A DNA stretch of 64,000 nucleotides from Escherichia phage AV101. Under the pieces are notes generated by a model. It saw nothing but the letters and a program-made list of their open reading frames with translations. It was not told the origin of the DNA and ran no database searches. This document shows positions 3,883-56,683 of this stretch, one piece after another (position 1 is the stretch's first letter; every line of letters begins with the position of its first letter). Location: sequence record OQ973471.1; one strand, 5' to 3'. The position numbers were made by a program, and so were the translations under genes.

Positions 3883-6165
3883 TTATACAACACAGCTGTC
3901 GCACTGAGTTTCCTCAGCCTGCTTCAGCTCTTCGTCTTCCTTGGCGTCCTTGTTTGTGTTGTAATATAGAGTCTTGCCACCCCACATATAGAACGACAGG
4001 ATATCCTGCATCATCTTGGCGCGAGGGATCTTGCTGTCAGGGTACTTCTCTGGGTCATACCACGTGTTGGTACTAATGGACTGGTCAACCCAGCGCTGGA
4101 TGACAGCAGCGGTCTTCAGGTACTCAATACAGTCCAGATCCCACTTGAGGTCATACATCGGTCCAAGGGTCTCAACGTCCGGGACGACCTGCTTATAAGT
4201 GCCGTCCTTGCTACCCTTGATGCTCACCAAGCCCTTCGGTGGCTCAATGCCGTTCGTTGCGTTGAGGACCTGTGAGGAGCTTTCGGTAGGGGCTACTGCC
4301 AGCAGGGTGGCGTTGCGGATACCATAGGTCTTCAGATTATCCTTCAACTCATCCCAATCCAGCCCATATGCCATCCCTTCCGGCTTCTTGCCATTTGGTA
4401 GGATATCAAGTGGAAGCGGCTGAAGGTCGGCGGTGACCTGCCCATTATTGTGGATGGTTCCGCGTTTACACGCCCCGAACTTCATAGCCAGACGGTTGGA
4501 TGCCTTGACCAGATAGAAGTGCAGGTGTGCCATCCACGCATCCAACATTTCAAGACCAGCTGGTGAGCCATAGCCCGTGAAGTTCTTGGCCAAGAAGTGA
4601 GCCACGTTCACGATACCAACACCCAGAGGACGATAGTCTTCAACAGCTTTACGAGCCTGAATCGCTGGATAGTCCTGATATTCCAACAGCATGTCCAGCG
4701 CAGACACCAACACGAACGCCACGTCTTCCATTTCGGTCGGGTCTTCGAATGCTGTCAGGTTGAAGGAAGCCAGGGTGCACAGAGCCACGCGCCCGTTTTC
4801 ATCGTTGTACTGCTCAAACTCACGGGTCGGCAGGGCGATTTCTAAACAAAGATTTGAAGAATAAATCGTGTCTAGGTTGAACGGGCTGTATTCATTCATG
4901 TGATCGACAAATGCGATGTAGATGCGGCCTGTGTCTGAACGCTGGTCTAACAGCATCTGGAACACCTCTTCTGCCTGCAACTTTTTAGCACGAACCAAAC
5001 CAGCATCAGCGGCCTTGATCATGTTCTCATACAGAGTACGGAACTTGTCAACGTCAGCGAAGTATGCTTCATACATTTCGCGGTTGTCTTTCGGGTCGAA
5101 CAGATACAGAGGCTGCTTGGCAACAAGGCGCTCAAACATCACGCGGTTGATCTGAATGCCATAGTCGATACGGCGTTCGCGGTTTTCTTCAGTACCACGG
5201 TTGTTCTTCAGAACAACGACGTCATCGAACTGGTAATGCCACAGAGGGATGTACGCTGTTGCTGCACCACCACGAATGCCGCCCTGAGAGCACGATTTGA
5301 GTGCCCCAGTGAGATACTTGATGAACGGGATCAGGCCTGTGTGAACCATCTCTCCGCCGCGAATAGGACTACCAATCCCACGGATTGCCCCGACGTCGAA
5401 GCCGATACCCGCACGTTTGGACACATAGTCAACGATGGTCTTGGCTGTTGCGTTGATAGAGTTCAGGGTGTCACCAGTTTTGATCAGAACACAAGAGCTG
5501 AACTGGCGGGTTGGTGTACGAACACCAGCCATGATAGGCGTTGGAAGACTGAACTTGCCTGTGCTGGCGTATTCATAGAACTTCTTGACCATATCCAGGC
5601 GGCTTTCTTTGTCCCAGTTGGAGAACAACGCCATGGCGATTGCCATGTACATGACCTGAGGAGTTTCGTAGAAGATCTTGCTATCCTTCTTGGAACGGTC
5701 ACGCAGCAGATACTTCTCTGTCAACTGGCCCATGGCCGCCCAGGTGAAGTTCTTGTCACGTTTGTGGTTGATGACATCGTTCAGCTCGTTGAACTCTTCA
5801 GTCGTGTAAAGGTCGAGGAACTCACGATCATACACGCGTTGCTTGATGTTCTTGACGAAGATATCCAGCAGGTGAGGTGGCTTGTACTGGCCATAGACAG
5901 CCTTGCGCAGATCATATGACTTCAGGCGAGCAGCCACATACTGGTAATTGGGTTTCTCTACGGAGATCAGTGAAGCCGCAGCCTGGATGAGGATATCCTG
6001 AATGCGATCTGTTCTCATGTTGTCGGTGAACTGAATCTTCGATGCAGCGATCACCTCTGACATTGATACGCCAACCAGTCCGTCACATGCGCGGTCTACG
6101 ACTTCGTGTGGTTTCTCAATATCAAAGGGGACAGAAGATCCGTCCCGCTTAATGACGTTAATCAT
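3883..6165 (-). CDS. nrdA: Ribonucleotide reductase large (alpha) subunit, class Ia with N-terminal ATP-cone
   Basis: 760 aa; N-terminal ATP-cone MINVIKRDGSSVPFDIEK, catalytic core motifs (NLCLEI, CTLAS). Confidence 0.9.
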   Translation of the reverse strand: MINVIKRDGSSVPFDIEKPHEVVDRACDGLVGVSMSEVIAASKIQFTDNMRTDRIQDILIQAAASLISVEKPNYQYVAARLKSYDLRKAVYGQYKPPHLLDIFVKNIKQRVYDREFLDLYTTEEFNELNDVINHKRDKNFTWAAMGQLTEKYLLRDRSKKDSKIFYETPQVMYMAIAMALFSNWDKESRLDMVKKFYEYASTGKFSLPTPIMAGVRTPTRQFSSCVLIKTGDTLNSINATAKTIVDYVSKRAGIGFDVGAIRGIGSPIRGGEMVHTGLIPFIKYLTGALKSCSQGGIRGGAATAYIPLWHYQFDDVVVLKNNRGTEENRERRIDYGIQINRVMFERLVAKQPLYLFDPKDNREMYEAYFADVDKFRTLYENMIKAADAGLVRAKKLQAEEVFQMLLDQRSDTGRIYIAFVDHMNEYSPFNLDTIYSSNLCLEIALPTREFEQYNDENGRVALCTLASFNLTAFEDPTEMEDVAFVLVSALDMLLEYQDYPAIQARKAVEDYRPLGVGIVNVAHFLAKNFTGYGSPAGLEMLDAWMAHLHFYLVKASNRLAMKFGACKRGTIHNNGQVTADLQPLPLDILPNGKKPEGMAYGLDWDELKDNLKTYGIRNATLLAVAPTESSSQVLNATNGIEPPKGLVSIKGSKDGTYKQVVPDVETLGPMYDLKWDLDCIEYLKTAAVIQRWVDQSISTNTWYDPEKYPDSKIPRAKMMQDILSFYMWGGKTLYYNTNKDAKEDEELKQAEETQCDSCVV

Positions 6166-50526: not shown

Positions 50527-51297
50527 TTACTTCAGCGCGTTCTTCAGATTATCGGAACCAATGCTGTTGATGACACCTCCGGCGCAGATATCTTTCGCCC
50601 ACTCTGATATCACGTTGGCAAAAGAGAAGTTAAGACACTTACCAACCATGTCTTGGATATGGGCTAACTCTGCTGCAATACCGTTCGTGATGTCCTGAGC
50701 AATAGAGGCTACTGATGCGACAGCAGTGTCGATGGCCTGAGTAACTTCAGCAGCCAGTGCCCGAATAGCATCAAGACCAGCACTGACACCCTGAGCTACC
50801 AACTCAGCCAGCTCATTCATCTTGTTTGTGATAGTTGTGAGAACACTTTGCATGGTGTTGATCCACTGTTTGCCGAGGTTCTGAATAACCCCAAATGCAT
50901 TATTGATCAGATCACAGTTGTTCGGTTCTCGACCTATAGACTTCAGGGCGGACTTATATGACACAGATGTACCGATGCGGGAATATGCCTCGTTCACTGA
51001 CTGGTAGCCATAGTTGTTCAAAGTAGTGATGCTGTCGTTGGCTGAGTTAAACATTGCTGTAGATTCGTTGAGTTTGGCTGTAGTCAACCCACCTGCCGTC
51101 AGCGCTTCCTGAATCTGCGTATTTCCGGTGTTAGCCAGTGACGCTGTAGTCGCCTTACCACTGGTGATTAACCCCTGCGAGGCGCTGCTGAGGGACGGGA
51201 GAGGATTGGTAAAGGCGTTGCCCTGCGATAGGGCGTCATAGATCTGTGCGTTCATAAGAAAATACCCCCATGGATGATGGGGGTATTTAGGGATCAT
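50527..51297 (-). CDS. Hypothetical Ser/Thr/Ala-rich protein (256 aa), possible late/structural protein
   Basis: ATGA overlap with a small upstream membrane ORF suggests coupled start at 51297. Confidence 0.4.
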   Translation of the reverse strand: MIPKYPHHPWGYFLMNAQIYDALSQGNAFTNPLPSLSSASQGLITSGKATTASLANTGNTQIQEALTAGGLTTAKLNESTAMFNSANDSITTLNNYGYQSVNEAYSRIGTSVSYKSALKSIGREPNNCDLINNAFGVIQNLGKQWINTMQSVLTTITNKMNELAELVAQGVSAGLDAIRALAAEVTQAIDTAVASVASIAQDITNGIAAELAHIQDMVGKCLNFSFANVISEWAKDICAGGVINSIGSDNLKNALK

Positions 51298-51464
51298 GGT
51301 AGTTTGTAAACGAAGTTGGACCAGAACTTACGAACAAACTTCTTGACATAAACCATTCGGTTGGCGTATTCCCCATCCTTCAGGTCATTGTAGGTCTCGA
51401 TCCCTACCGCGCCCAAGAAGTACGCCGTGAAGATATAGCAGAACAGATTGATGACGACAAACAT
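51294..51464 (-). CDS. Small membrane protein (56 aa), below ORF-track cutoff
   Basis: Hand translation MFVVINLFCYIFTAYFLGAVGI...; GGAG RBS; stop overlaps downstream start. Confidence 0.3.
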   Translation of the reverse strand: MFVVINLFCYIFTAYFLGAVGIETYNDLKDGEYANRMVYVKKFVRKFWSNFVYKLP

Positions 51465-53484: not shown

Positions 53485-53808
53485 TCAAAGAATGATGTGT
53501 TCGTCGATATCGGACTGCGTTGCAATCTCCCAGCGGACGATGTTCTCGGTTGTGATGAAATCACGGTTCAGGTGAGAGGCTGGTACATACACCATCGTAT
53601 TGACCATGAAGTAGCGCTGCTCATTGTTCCAGGAGTCAACATAAGCCTCAATAAGGCACACTTCGATCACTTCGCCTTTCGGATTCTTCACAGTCTTTTT
53701 CAGATACATGACACAGCCCTCGGTAGTAGACGGGGCAATAATACCTCTCACCCCGTTATTGAAATGTTCTTTTAGTTCAAGACATATTTGATCAGTCCAC
53801 AATTCCAA
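53485..53808 (-). CDS. Hypothetical protein
   Basis: 107 aa ORF. Confidence 0.4.
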   Translation of the reverse strand: MELWTDQICLELKEHFNNGVRGIIAPSTTEGCVMYLKKTVKNPKGEVIEVCLIEAYVDSWNNEQRYFMVNTMVYVPASHLNRDFITTENIVRWEIATQSDIDEHIIL

Positions 53809-55244
53809 ATCCTGACCAGCCCGGCTTCGGTTGCTAACTGGCTTTCTGTTTTGCCTTCTACGTCATACCCCATGCGAGCAAATGAACCTTTTCTGAAACC
53901 GAATTTGTGCTCACGCATAAATGTGCCAGGCTTGTGATATTTGTAGTCTGGCTTCTGTACTTCCTCTTCTACGAATCCGTGGGATAGGTAAATGTTGGAC
54001 AACCTGCTTGCAACACACCTATCCCCAAAGGAATAGATTTTGGTGTCGGCAAATTTTCTTCTGAAGTGTGAAAGAAGTTTACTGAATGCCCCGTGGCAAT
54101 CATTAGAGGCAAATCTGACTAATTCCAGGCCATCTTTCCTTTTAGTGAATAGCATCACGGCTTGTATGACCCCACTCTTGTCAATTAACGATAAATGGTG
54201 GGTAGAAGAAACGGAACCTTGTATGTGGTGGTTGTCTAAAAACTCCCTCAAGCCGCTTATATTCCCCCAAACGACTTTGTGTTGGCGAGCATATGACGCA
54301 GGCGTTTTAATGCCAAGTTTAGCTTTCAGAAGAGATTTGACCACTTCCTGTTTCTCAACCCATTCATCTTCCCAGATGTGAATCAACTGGATACCCTGAG
54401 ATTCACATATTTCAGTCTTTTCCAGGTGATAATGTTTCTCTTTAAAAACTTCTGAATGCCAGTACAGGCCATTAAATTCAATCGCCAATTTGTGTTCAGG
54501 GCAATAGATATCCAGTTGTTTACCGGATAATATACTGTAATCAGAAACAGTGTTTACAACTCCCATTGAGGTGAGAAACTCGGATATTTCCTTTTCATAA
54601 GAAGATTTCTTGTTCCTGATAGAACCATTGCTGAACAACGCACGTTTTAGTATGTTCGAGTTTTTCATAGGGTTGTCAACACCATAACGTTCTTGTAACG
54701 TTGCCAACGCCTTCTCCCTCACACCAGGTAATTGTAGTGTGGAGCAGCTTCCGTATTTGGATATATTCGAAGTCTCTATGACTTTCCGACCAATCCCACC
54801 TTTACACATAGAAACCTGATAACATTCTTCAGAACAATATGTTCTGTAATCTTTATTATTGATGTAAAAGTTGGTTTCCTTGGAACACACCGGGCATATT
54901 TTCACGGCTCTATTGTACAGCCAAGCTGTGACTTTACAAGCCAAATCTTGTAGGGTGTTGTGGGTATTGGCGAACACTAAAAGGTCTACATTGATGTGCT
55001 TCATAAGCAGTTCAGATTTGCATTTTTGGATATCCAATTTGTTGTTCTTGGTAAACATATATTTGTAGAAAAATTGGCGATATGATTCCTCGTCAGATAA
55101 TTCATTCACTGCTTCAAGGAAACCTTCCGGGAGGTTCTTTAGGGTGTTCGATGCGAAGGTCTTGCAAGCATCTGAACAAAATTTCTTATCTTTCCTGGAT
55201 GCTTTGAACTGTTCATGGCAGACACTACAGATTACCTGATACAT
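53772..55244 (-). CDS. Putative free-standing endonuclease: N-terminal zinc ribbons plus C-terminal Vsr/PD-(D/E)xK-like nuclease domain
   Basis: CSVC...CSDAC and CPVC...CSEEC ribbons; LAIEFNGLYWHSE ... IHIWEDEW nuclease-like motif; GGAGGAG RBS; own promoter after gp23 terminator. Confidence 0.5.
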   Translation of the reverse strand: MYQVICSVCHEQFKASRKDKKFCSDACKTFASNTLKNLPEGFLEAVNELSDEESYRQFFYKYMFTKNNKLDIQKCKSELLMKHINVDLLVFANTHNTLQDLACKVTAWLYNRAVKICPVCSKETNFYINNKDYRTYCSEECYQVSMCKGGIGRKVIETSNISKYGSCSTLQLPGVREKALATLQERYGVDNPMKNSNILKRALFSNGSIRNKKSSYEKEISEFLTSMGVVNTVSDYSILSGKQLDIYCPEHKLAIEFNGLYWHSEVFKEKHYHLEKTEICESQGIQLIHIWEDEWVEKQEVVKSLLKAKLGIKTPASYARQHKVVWGNISGLREFLDNHHIQGSVSSTHHLSLIDKSGVIQAVMLFTKRKDGLELVRFASNDCHGAFSKLLSHFRRKFADTKIYSFGDRCVASRLSNIYLSHGFVEEEVQKPDYKYHKPGTFMREHKFGFRKGSFARMGYDVEGKTESQLATEAGLVRIWNCGLIKYVLN

Positions 55245-55300
55245 AATTATTCTCCTCCATATGGTATCTAGTATAACCTGTTCGATAATATGAACAAATA

Positions 55301-55322
55301 AAAACCCCGCCGAAGCGGGGTT
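55301..55322 (-). terminator. Rho-independent terminator downstream of major capsid gene
   Basis: AAACCCCGC-TTCG-GCGGGGTTT followed by TTTTATTTGTT on minus strand. Confidence 0.7.
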
Positions 55323-55348
55323 TGTCAGGGTTAAGGACAACTGTTCTA

Positions 55349-56683
55349 TTAGAACAGGCCTTTGATCAGCCCTTTACGGAAGTACACGTTGGTGTCCTTG
55401 GCGATACCATCCGCAGTCACATAGACCTGTGGATCCTGGTTCGCTGGGATCTGAACGAATGGGTTAGCACAAATCCCGTAGCGGGTCTTGAACGCCATAC
55501 GTGGTGCGAAGGTGGTTTCACCCTGGGTGCGGTACATTTCCAGCGGCACGTATGGCGCGAAGAAGATACCAGCATCCAGTGCGGTTGCACCTTTGTATGC
55601 CAGGGTGATGTATTCTGCTACTGCATACGGGTCGATGTAGACACGCATACCGTTAGACAGCACACCAGCGAAGGTCTGGCCAGTCGGATCAATCGCCAGC
55701 TTGGTGTTTTCCTGCAGAGCCGGAGCATAATCCAGCATGCCGGACATCGCCAGAGCGGATGCTACGTTCGGGGAGCACAGAACACGGTTGCCTTTACCAC
55801 GACGGGTGTCAACACCGATGCCGTTCGCTTCAACTTCCAGCATGAAAGTCATGTACTTCCATTTTTCCAGCGCCCAACGACCGGAGATGTCAGTGGAGAT
55901 GTCTACGATACCGTTGGTGCCGAATTTTTTGAAGCGTACTGCGCTGAAGTTCATGGTGCGGATAAACTCACGGTTCATCTCTGCCTGAATTTCAGTTACC
56001 ATCACGTCGGACAGGATGCTGTCAACGTCTTCGCCGTGGATCGCCATCATGTCCTGGCGCAGTTCGTGGCTGTAGTCAGCGTACAGGCCGCGAGACTTCG
56101 CAGTCACGGTTGCTTTCTGAACGGTGATACCGACACGTGCCCATGGGTTGGTGGTGGTGCCCAGCAGTTCAGCGTCGGAAGTTGACATGCCTTTACCGAT
56201 GGTGGTGGTAGCAGCGCCGGAACCTTCGATCTCAGTCTGGGTAAAGCCAGATGGGTCGCCAGCCTGAGCAGTGTCGTCACCAGAGTAGCCAGAATCAGCT
56301 TCCTGCATGAACAGTTCTTTACGGGAATGTTGGGTGTTGGAGCCGCCGTCTGAAATGCCCTGGCGAGCACGCAGAGCAAAGATCTGACCGTCAGGACCAG
56401 ACAGCGGCTGAACGCCGAAGAAGTCCATCGCGATGTTGACCGGAGCCAGACGTTTGGCCATGTCGATCAGGACTGGCTGCCATTTGCCCACAGAGGCGTT
56501 CACGGAGCCAGGAGCGTCGGATTCGCCCAGGTTTTTGGCGTTCCACTCAGCCTGGTTTTGCAGCAGACGGACGGCAACGTTTTCGGCAGAAAGCGGCTGG
56601 ATGCTTTCAGATTCTTTCTGAAGAACTGGCAGCCACTGCTCGCGCATTTGTTCGGTAACAAGTTTCTTAGCCATGATGGTCAT
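55349..56683 (-). CDS. gp23: Major capsid protein (T4 gp23-like)
   Basis: FGVQPLSGPDGQIFALRA, DNPWARVG, FAGVLSNGMRVYIDPYA, DAGIFFAPYV, FKTRYGI match T4 gp23 blocks. Confidence 0.9.
   Translation of the reverse strand: MTIMAKKLVTEQMREQWLPVLQKESESIQPLSAENVAVRLLQNQAEWNAKNLGESDAPGSVNASVGKWQPVLIDMAKRLAPVNIAMDFFGVQPLSGPDGQIFALRARQGISDGGSNTQHSRKELFMQEADSGYSGDDTAQAGDPSGFTQTEIEGSGAATTTIGKGMSTSDAELLGTTTNPWARVGITVQKATVTAKSRGLYADYSHELRQDMMAIHGEDVDSILSDVMVTEIQAEMNREFIRTMNFSAVRFKKFGTNGIVDISTDISGRWALEKWKYMTFMLEVEANGIGVDTRRGKGNRVLCSPNVASALAMSGMLDYAPALQENTKLAIDPTGQTFAGVLSNGMRVYIDPYAVAEYITLAYKGATALDAGIFFAPYVPLEMYRTQGETTFAPRMAFKTRYGICANPFVQIPANQDPQVYVTADGIAKDTNVYFRKGLIKGLF

Follow-up and report, generated by a model that had tools for sequence, protein, structure and literature searches.

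The locus described here lies in a stretch of 64,000 nucleotides (nt) from Escherichia phage AV101 (sequence record OQ973471.1; hereafter, the window is this whole stretch), in which a gene for a protein of 490 amino acids (aa) follows the major capsid protein gene and its terminator, and in which a perfect palindrome spans the capsid stop codon. The 4 kb round the locus have matches in 287 phage records, all of them from ViI-like myoviruses (Ackermannviridae), the nearest being Escherichia phages YX22, vB_EcoM-ZQ1, RPN242 and LHE287, at about 95% nucleotide identity. The DNA of Ackermannviridae carries hypermodified thymidine. On the minus strand the genes run in the order prohead protease, scaffold, major capsid protein and then the 490-aa endonuclease gene. 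We judge it very probable that this last gene belongs to the Hef-like lineage of free-standing homing endonuclease genes, with a nuclease of the Vsr/'EDxHD' type, and that the palindrome over the capsid stop codon is to be seen apart from it. The features on which this reading draws are as follows.

55349 to 56683, minus strand: major capsid protein gene, gp23-like; a listed open reading frame (ORF), annotated as major capsid protein in relatives
55333 to 55362, minus strand: extended imperfect hairpin over the last four or so capsid codons and the stop codon, with the 17-bp palindrome as its apex; from RNA folds and comparison
55297 to 55323, minus strand: intrinsic terminator of the capsid transcript, a stem-loop (55302-55323) and T-run, predicted from sequence
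55270 to 55297, minus strand: putative sigma-70-type promoter of the cassette, TTGTTC-16 nt-TATACT; from sequence and conservation
55252 to 55258, minus strand: ribosome-binding site GGAGGAG, 7 nt upstream of the ATG
53772 to 55244, minus strand: very probable Hef-like free-standing homing endonuclease gene, 490 aa, ortholog of F-LimVII; from the ORF list and homology
54630 to 55229, minus strand: N-terminal module, residues ~6-205, with two CxxC...CxxxC zinc ribbons and helical DUF7487-like repeats; from sub-threshold Pfam matches and an AlphaFold model with predicted local distance difference test (pLDDT) values above 85
55164 to 55229 and 54822 to 54896, minus strand: the two zinc ribbons
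54630 to 54779, minus strand: the helical DUF7487-like repeats
54315 to 54611, minus strand: Vsr/I-Bth0305I-type nuclease domain, residues ~212-310
53775 to 54302, minus strand: Mom-like GNAT-fold domain, residues ~315-490

The endonuclease ORF runs on the minus strand from an ATG at 55244 to a TAA at 53774-53772, and its orthologs are annotated at 490-491 aa. A 522-aa version with a TTG start was rejected as the true form of the gene, since it begins within the palindrome and crosses the terminator. The strong ribosome-binding site noted in the first-pass annotation of the window is there, at 55258-55252. The same annotation had proposed a possible promoter, and this proposal stands in part: TTGTTC (55297-55292) and TATACT (55275-55270) are present with a 16-nt spacer, and orthologous cassettes keep both hexamer blocks and their spacing while the spacer sequence varies, but the hexamers match the consensus at three and five of six positions, respectively, and the site, being below threshold, did not appear in a consensus scan. 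TATACT is also the −10 element of an annotated early promoter of Dickeya phage LIMEstone1. Judged from the sequence, a real promoter ahead of the endonuclease gene is plausible. The terminator just upstream has a 9-bp G+C stem, AAACCCCGC-TTCG-GCGGGGTTT (55323-55302), with the T-run after it; it is kept in every Ackermannviridae locus examined, and the LIMEstone1 record annotates a terminator at the equivalent position. A search of the window by tblastn found no other copies of the endonuclease protein (best expect value, E, 1.7).

The 490-aa protein matches PHROG 3339, 'homing endonuclease', at E 2.3e-155. Among 1934 database homologs, there is 98% identity to an unannotated metagenomic cluster and 87% aa identity, over the full length, to F-LimVII of LIMEstone1; the paralogs F-LimIII and F-LimX are also among these homologs. 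F-LimVII (ORF137) entered the literature in 2012 as one of 14 endonuclease genes of the LIMEstone1 genome, classed there among the free-standing homing endonucleases as 'Hef-like' (PMC3296691); moreover, GenBank records of near-identical Escherichia phages label the gene a (putative) homing endonuclease. With its ortholog named in 2012 and its near-identical counterparts so annotated, the gene is already known as a homing endonuclease. F-LimVII shares with the AV101 gene the locus directly after the capsid terminator, whereas the downstream neighbour differs, being ORF136 in LIMEstone1 and an orf181-like gene in the window. The authors of the I-Bth0305I study assign Hef-type enzymes to the Vsr-like EDxHD family (PMC3239194), and the Hef enzyme of phage U5 is reported to cleave nrdB (PMC2988022), the one Hef-like enzyme for which such activity is reported. 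Besides F-LimVII, the Hef-like free-standing enzymes include Hef of U5 and copies in Acj9, the Campylobacter CP30A-group and PA5oct. The AV101 protein has the nuclease and C-terminal module in common with phage proteins annotated as Hef-like, at 28-40% identity; the N-terminal modules differ from member to member across the family. In proteins annotated 'Hef-like homing endonuclease', tblastn matches cover 95-98% of the 285-aa module, and nuclease plus C-terminal module is found in 1014 copies in 415 phage records. The module is often multi-copy, at up to 12 places per genome in Campylobacter phages (e.g. F358 and PC14) and at five places in Pseudomonas PA5oct-like jumbo phages; in Vibrio K447-type phages and Caulobacter phage Cr30 a copy lies within ~1-1.5 kb of the major head gene.

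An AlphaFold model of the 490-aa protein, built on 49 homologs, has a mean pLDDT of 91.7 and a single disordered linker, at residues 206-211. Beyond this linker lies the nuclease. From the motifs LAIEFNGLYWHSE and IHIWEDEW, a nuclease-like C-terminal domain had been predicted; the nuclease bearing them is present, but it is central (residues ~212-310), with a domain of 175 aa after it. Fold and profile searches, which had been put forward as a check, gave this central domain a Vsr-like nuclease fold: the closest solved structure by sequence is the I-Bth0305I catalytic domain (3r3p, E 1.3e-3), and the domain superposes both on it and on Vsr. Residues E217, D245, N258 and H263 correspond to E170, D196, N208 and H213 of I-Bth0305I, and D245, E256, H263, H273, K276 and D293 are invariant in the 49 homologs. 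The Vsr profiles themselves score below their cut-offs (Pfam PF03852, 18.3 bits against 27; TIGR00632, 19.6 bits against 97.85) and, compared with Vsr and DUF559/NGO0050-type proteins, every Pfam and NCBIfam score of the protein lies under the curated cut-off. A Vsr-type zinc site was not seen in the nuclease domain on inspection of the sequence by eye only. The contexts differ as well, in that Vsr belongs to mismatch repair and the 490-aa gene to a mobile phage cassette. I-Bth0305I, the EDxHD prototype (PDB 3R3P), has the Vsr-like catalytic fold in common with the 490-aa protein; it is intron-encoded, however, whereas the AV101 gene is free-standing, and it consists of a NUMOD/helix-turn-helix part followed by a C-terminal nuclease, in contrast to the order of zinc ribbons and DUF7487-like repeats, central nuclease and Mom-like domain found here. 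The two proteins are members of one superfamily with unlike architectures.

In the N-terminal module, the two Cys4 ribbons reported in the first-pass annotation were recovered as C6/C9/C23/C27 and C117/C120/C137/C141; the first two cysteines of each ribbon, as well as C23 and C27, are conserved in homologs wherever the segment exists. The Pfam matches of the module, to YacG and DUF7487, are sub-threshold, and the module is presumed to bind DNA.

The C-terminal domain is of a different kind. GNAT acetyltransferases top both structural searches of the PDB with this domain and, among viral models, its closest named match is a Mom protein (E 4.6e-8). The Pfam family Mom (PF25680) is matched by 11 of the 49 homologs at E ≤ 0.01 (best 5.4e-8); the C-terminal 180 aa of the window protein gave no match to PF25680 at E ≤ 10. 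Comparison with Mu Mom by hhalign was marginal (E 0.002, probability 13%) and a direct hidden Markov model comparison was very weak (3.9 bits). Two independent alignments nevertheless place H340, R377, D408 and Y419, invariant in the 49 homologs, on H58, R111, D149 and Y159 of Mu Mom; depending on the alignment, S124 of Mom falls on S388 (31 of 49 homologs) or H384, and R151 on R409 (42 of 49) or C410. In Mom, H58, R111, S124, D149, R151 and Y159 are essential or important for activity (PMC13219725). The proposed link to Mom rests on the fold, the Pfam matches of the homologs and the conservation of these residues; Mu Mom (PDB 8BV8), with which the domain has the GNAT fold in common, is a tRNA-dependent adenine-modifying GNAT.

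This domain is the basis of the alternative that survives best. Fusions of Mom domains with restriction-endonuclease-fold domains, described from jumbo phages, have been read as restriction-modification-like (Iyer et al., PMC7824862), while annotators label the same nuclease-Mom proteins Hef-like homing endonucleases. By extension, the 490-aa protein, instead of or besides homing, would be a single-chain restriction-modification-like weapon, whose Mom-like domain modifies the phage's own adenines and whose nuclease attacks unmodified host or superinfecting DNA. Such a role was proposed by Iyer and co-authors for the jumbo-phage nuclease-Mom fusions, with five 'momylating enzymes' counted in PA5oct (PMC7824862), and a PA5oct 'putative homing endonuclease' is among the top structural matches of our model. 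The invariance of the counterparts of Mom H58, R111, D149 and Y159, the presence of S388 at the place of S124 in 31 of the 49 homologs, and a ratio of nonsynonymous to synonymous substitution rates (dN/dS) of 0.086 in the Mom-like domain also speak for it. On balance, we regard a weapon of this kind as improbable.

The reading as a homing endonuclease gene draws further on how the gene is distributed. The GC content is 40.8% in the endonuclease gene, 55% in the capsid gene and 49.7% in the window. Only 23 of the 287 matching phage records cover the full 4-kb locus; an ortholog of the nuclease and Mom-like module at ≥90% identity occurs in 24 records, and the capsid 3′ end, at ≥80% nucleotide identity, in ~282. 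A comparison of presence and absence in relatives, as had been suggested, thus finds the gene in about 24 of about 282 records and not universally at this locus. Relative to Shigella phage Ag3 and Salmonella phage P46FS4, homology ends after the T-run of the terminator (~55300) and resumes at ~53765, and between these two boundaries both phages have three small ORFs in place of the endonuclease gene. The cassette slot is a discrete one, extending from the capsid terminator to just past the endonuclease stop codon, and beyond it lie the following.

53710 to 53765, minus strand: conserved intergenic element at the right edge of the cassette, ahead of the next gene, with a stem-loop (ACGGGG...CCCCGT); homology to phages that lack the endonuclease gene resumes here
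53485 to 53709, minus strand: small downstream gene of 74 aa, equivalent to Ag3 orf00181, outside the cassette and conserved in relatives

Across 30-odd loci, the slot holds the 490-aa gene, a paralog of 52% identity (in phage fGh-Ecl02, our locus L003), a SegE-like GIY-YIG gene of 279-284 aa (Pfam E 5.5e-5, just under threshold), a 215-aa gene, or small ORFs only. The N-terminus of the 215-aa gene product is similar to that of the SegE-like GIY-YIG protein; it starts MNQPYVYKIESKDG and is GIY-YIG-like by eye. The observations on the slot come from the window and from loci L003, L007, L011, L017, L018, L021-L023, L026, L029 and L031. They make the stretch directly behind the capsid terminator a hot spot of endonuclease genes, those of two Hef-like lineages included, and the capsid gene is likely the conserved neighbour that the endonuclease gene exploits. 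In phage T4, segD occupies the equivalent niche, directly after gene 23; the GIY-YIG catalytic fold of the Seg proteins, however, is unrelated to the Vsr-like nuclease of the 490-aa protein.

Synonymous divergence (dS) differs between the endonuclease gene and the adjacent capsid gene, at 0.024 and 0.094 for L027, 0.179 and 0.352 for L010, and 0.807 and 0.299 for LIMEstone1, respectively, so that the discordance runs in both directions; the identity profile along the locus is a mosaic. The endonuclease gene and its neighbours have had different histories. For the whole gene, dN/dS is ~0.09, and for each of the three modules it lies at 0.075-0.095; with values this low in every module, the whole protein is kept by purifying selection. 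Taken together, the match to PHROG 3339, the 87% identity to F-LimVII, the superposition on Vsr and I-Bth0305I and the occurrence in a minority of relatives agree with the earlier suggestion of another homing endonuclease; family membership, anatomy and population pattern all support it, and from them we infer the activity.

At the right boundary, the stem-loop sequence is ACGGGGtgagaggtattattGCCCCGT, at 53735-53760 on the minus strand. In fGh-Ecl02, ~40 bp of this stem-loop are duplicated, flanking an extra small ORF (at ~4788-4828 and ~5049-5089, in the orientation of the capsid strand), and because of this duplication the stem-loop suggests itself as a recombination junction for cassette exchange. 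Promoter-stem-loop cassettes are known in T4-type phages, and the right-boundary element is reminiscent of them. The product of the 74-aa gene matched no Pfam family. Annotations of the capsid protein in relatives begin four codons further in (440 aa). Further away, the strongest perfect palindrome of the window, with 12-bp arms (AAATACCCCCAT-GGATG-ATGGGGGTATTT, 51260-51288), lies at the junction of the minus-strand ORFs 50527-51297 and 51294-51464 and overlaps the start of the 256-aa ORF.

The palindrome over the capsid stop codon was described in the first-pass annotation as perfect and as spanning the stop, and so it is; its position, given there as 55340-55356, is 55341-55357. On the gene strand it reads CTGTTCTA-A-TAGAACAG (8+1+8, 55357-55341), with the stop codon, TAA at 55351-55349, inside it. 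In all Ackermannviridae loci examined, a hairpin takes in the last capsid codons, has the stop codon at its loop or close by, and sits ~10-25 nt ahead of the conserved terminator, whatever lies beyond the terminator. About ten distinct compensated stem sequences occur across the family. Klebsiella phage cp21, which has no endonuclease gene, has a 17-mer identical to that of the window, whereas the LIMEstone1-type loci (LIMEstone1 and L010) have a different palindrome, TTGTTTTAAT-A-ATTAAAACAA; the stem is CCTGTA/TACAGG in Serratia phage phiMAM1 and CUGUUC/GGACAG, with a G.U pair on the sense strand, in several Klebsiella phages (e.g. L012). The outer stems follow the upstream codons (AAGG/CCTT, AAGTCG/CGACTT and ATCAAA/TTTGAT). 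In an arm-swap test, own arms gave a mean of −8.3 kcal/mol and swapped arms −5.1, and none of 5000 permutations was as good, in a test that ignores shared ancestry. A search of Rfam returned no family at gathering score, its weak matches all resting on the terminator. Inspection of T4 gene 23 by eye revealed no comparable stop-codon hairpin, and the element is therefore not general to T4-like phages. The palindrome is best read as the apex of a hairpin that is conserved in the 3′-terminal part of the capsid mRNA and has no tie to the endonuclease; most likely, the hairpin would work with the adjacent terminator in the formation or stability of the transcript 3′ end.

Had the 17-bp palindrome been a recognition site, as the first-pass annotation thought possible, or a cleavage site, with a dimeric enzyme binding to it, several of these observations would be hard to accommodate. 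I-Bth0305I does act on a pseudo-palindromic target (PMC3239194); the palindrome lies ~45 bp from the left boundary of the cassette, and, in the loci examined, the stretch between stop codon and terminator is not alike in phages that have an endonuclease gene in the slot and in phages that have none, so that the true target may be nearby. However, the palindrome is intact in the enzyme's own genome, where it would be a self-target, and the identical 17-mer is found in cp21, which has no cassette. Conversely, in the closest gene-carrying relative (L027, with a 98.8%-identical ortholog) the inner pair is broken, with TCG for TAG, and the LIMEstone1 and L010 orthologs are preceded by the different palindrome. 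Finally, the stems are kept by compensatory and G.U changes, which argues for RNA pairing rather than for a sequence read by a protein. A role of the palindrome as target is thus very unlikely.

A motif in the spacer between stop codon and terminator was seen when loci L001-L031 were compared: CTTAC is present in all sampled loci with a GIY-YIG gene in the slot, in the LIMEstone1 and L010 orthologs of F-LimVII and with the L003 paralog. Loci with CTTAC often have TTT as the final capsid codon, endonuclease-less loci are without CTTAC, and the window (55324-55348) and L027 have CCTTAAC in its place. The CTTAC spacers could represent immune alleles or co-conversion tracts, and could point to the cleavage site. 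A second palindrome, CAGAACA-ATA-TGTTCTG (54830-54846), is part of the sequence that codes for the second zinc ribbon; it has the half-site of the capsid-stop palindrome in inverted form, is kept in orthologs and absent from the paralog, and probably reflects chance and coding constraint. We also considered a shared operator made of the TGTTC/GAACA half-sites in the stop-codon palindrome, the promoter spacer and the gene-internal repeat at 54830-54846. It was rejected, as the region shows no enrichment of the hexamers, the repeat in the promoter spacer is not kept in LIMEstone1 or L010, and the internal repeat is coding sequence, absent from the paralog.

The least credible alternative, that the gene is a decaying or domesticated remnant without current nuclease activity and the palindrome a product of chance, can appeal to the many free-standing endonuclease genes that degenerate, to the ~6 palindromes of such strength expected by chance per window and to a pairing strength of the capsid stop region that is just 7th of 77 in the window, but it is hardly compatible with an ORF of full length that matches its orthologs, with a dN/dS of ~0.09 in all three domains, with catalytic residues that are all intact, or with a hairpin that persists across genera through about ten sequence solutions.

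Some observations weigh against the reading that we prefer, of a Hef-like homing endonuclease gene next to a separate stop-codon hairpin. The homing function proposed for the 490-aa protein is transferred from phage U5 Hef and I-Bth0305I. At the fifth position of the EDxHD motif (Asp222 in I-Bth0305I, Asp97 in Vsr), an ungapped alignment by eye places a His, the invariant H273, and the HMMER alignment the non-conserved E275; the last Asp is thus not demonstrably present, and the nuclease is better termed Vsr-like than strictly 'EDxHD'. The −35 element of the putative promoter is poor, with three of six positions matched. The conserved Mom-type residues suggest that the C-terminal domain does more than bind DNA, which a simple homing model leaves unexplained. 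As for the hairpin, RNAalifold predicted no pairs when given 17 stop-codon regions in a plain MAFFT alignment; differences in loop length misalign the 3′ arms, and for this reason the arm-swap test was used in its place. Moreover, the capsid stop region, at rank 7 of the 77 ORF ends of the window, is no outlier in pairing. Counted by script (arms ≥8, loop ≤5, nested matches included), the window has 23 perfect palindromes, mostly terminator-like stems, against ~6 expected under its first-order Markov model; the significance of the palindrome comes from the comparison of relatives and not from its rarity in the window.

If the 490-aa protein is a homing endonuclease, the cassette would rely on a promoter of its own for transcription, since the terminator shuts it off from late transcription of the capsid gene. 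In a mixed infection, the enzyme would cut the genome of a related phage without the cassette, somewhere near the capsid 3′ end and the downstream intergenic region, and recombinational repair would then copy the cassette, along with markers on its flanks, into the genome that was cut. Recognition of the target would come from the N-terminal module, and possibly also from the Mom-like domain.

Competition of several endonuclease classes for a single site is well illustrated, in nature, by the slot behind the capsid terminator. Beside it, the stop-codon hairpin has outlasted a succession of cassettes downstream as well as many changes of codon, and this persistence suggests a selected role in the expression of the most abundant virion protein. 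For the wider family of nuclease-Mom proteins, one widespread architecture has two conflicting published readings, a Hef-like homing endonuclease and a nuclease-Mom restriction-modification fusion; the conflict is not new, but the strict conservation of the Mom residues makes it directly testable. We find it tempting, if rather doubtful as a whole, that the Mom-like domain is active, making the protein a cut-and-protect element in one polypeptide and, independently, that the stop-codon hairpin is an undescribed cis-acting RNA element found throughout the Ackermannviridae. With an active Mom-like domain, the cassette would gain self-immunity by marking adenines of the carrier genome, at its own target or close to it, and would cut the unmarked alleles of co-infecting phages; such an element would unite the homing endonuclease and the nuclease-Mom restriction-modification readings.

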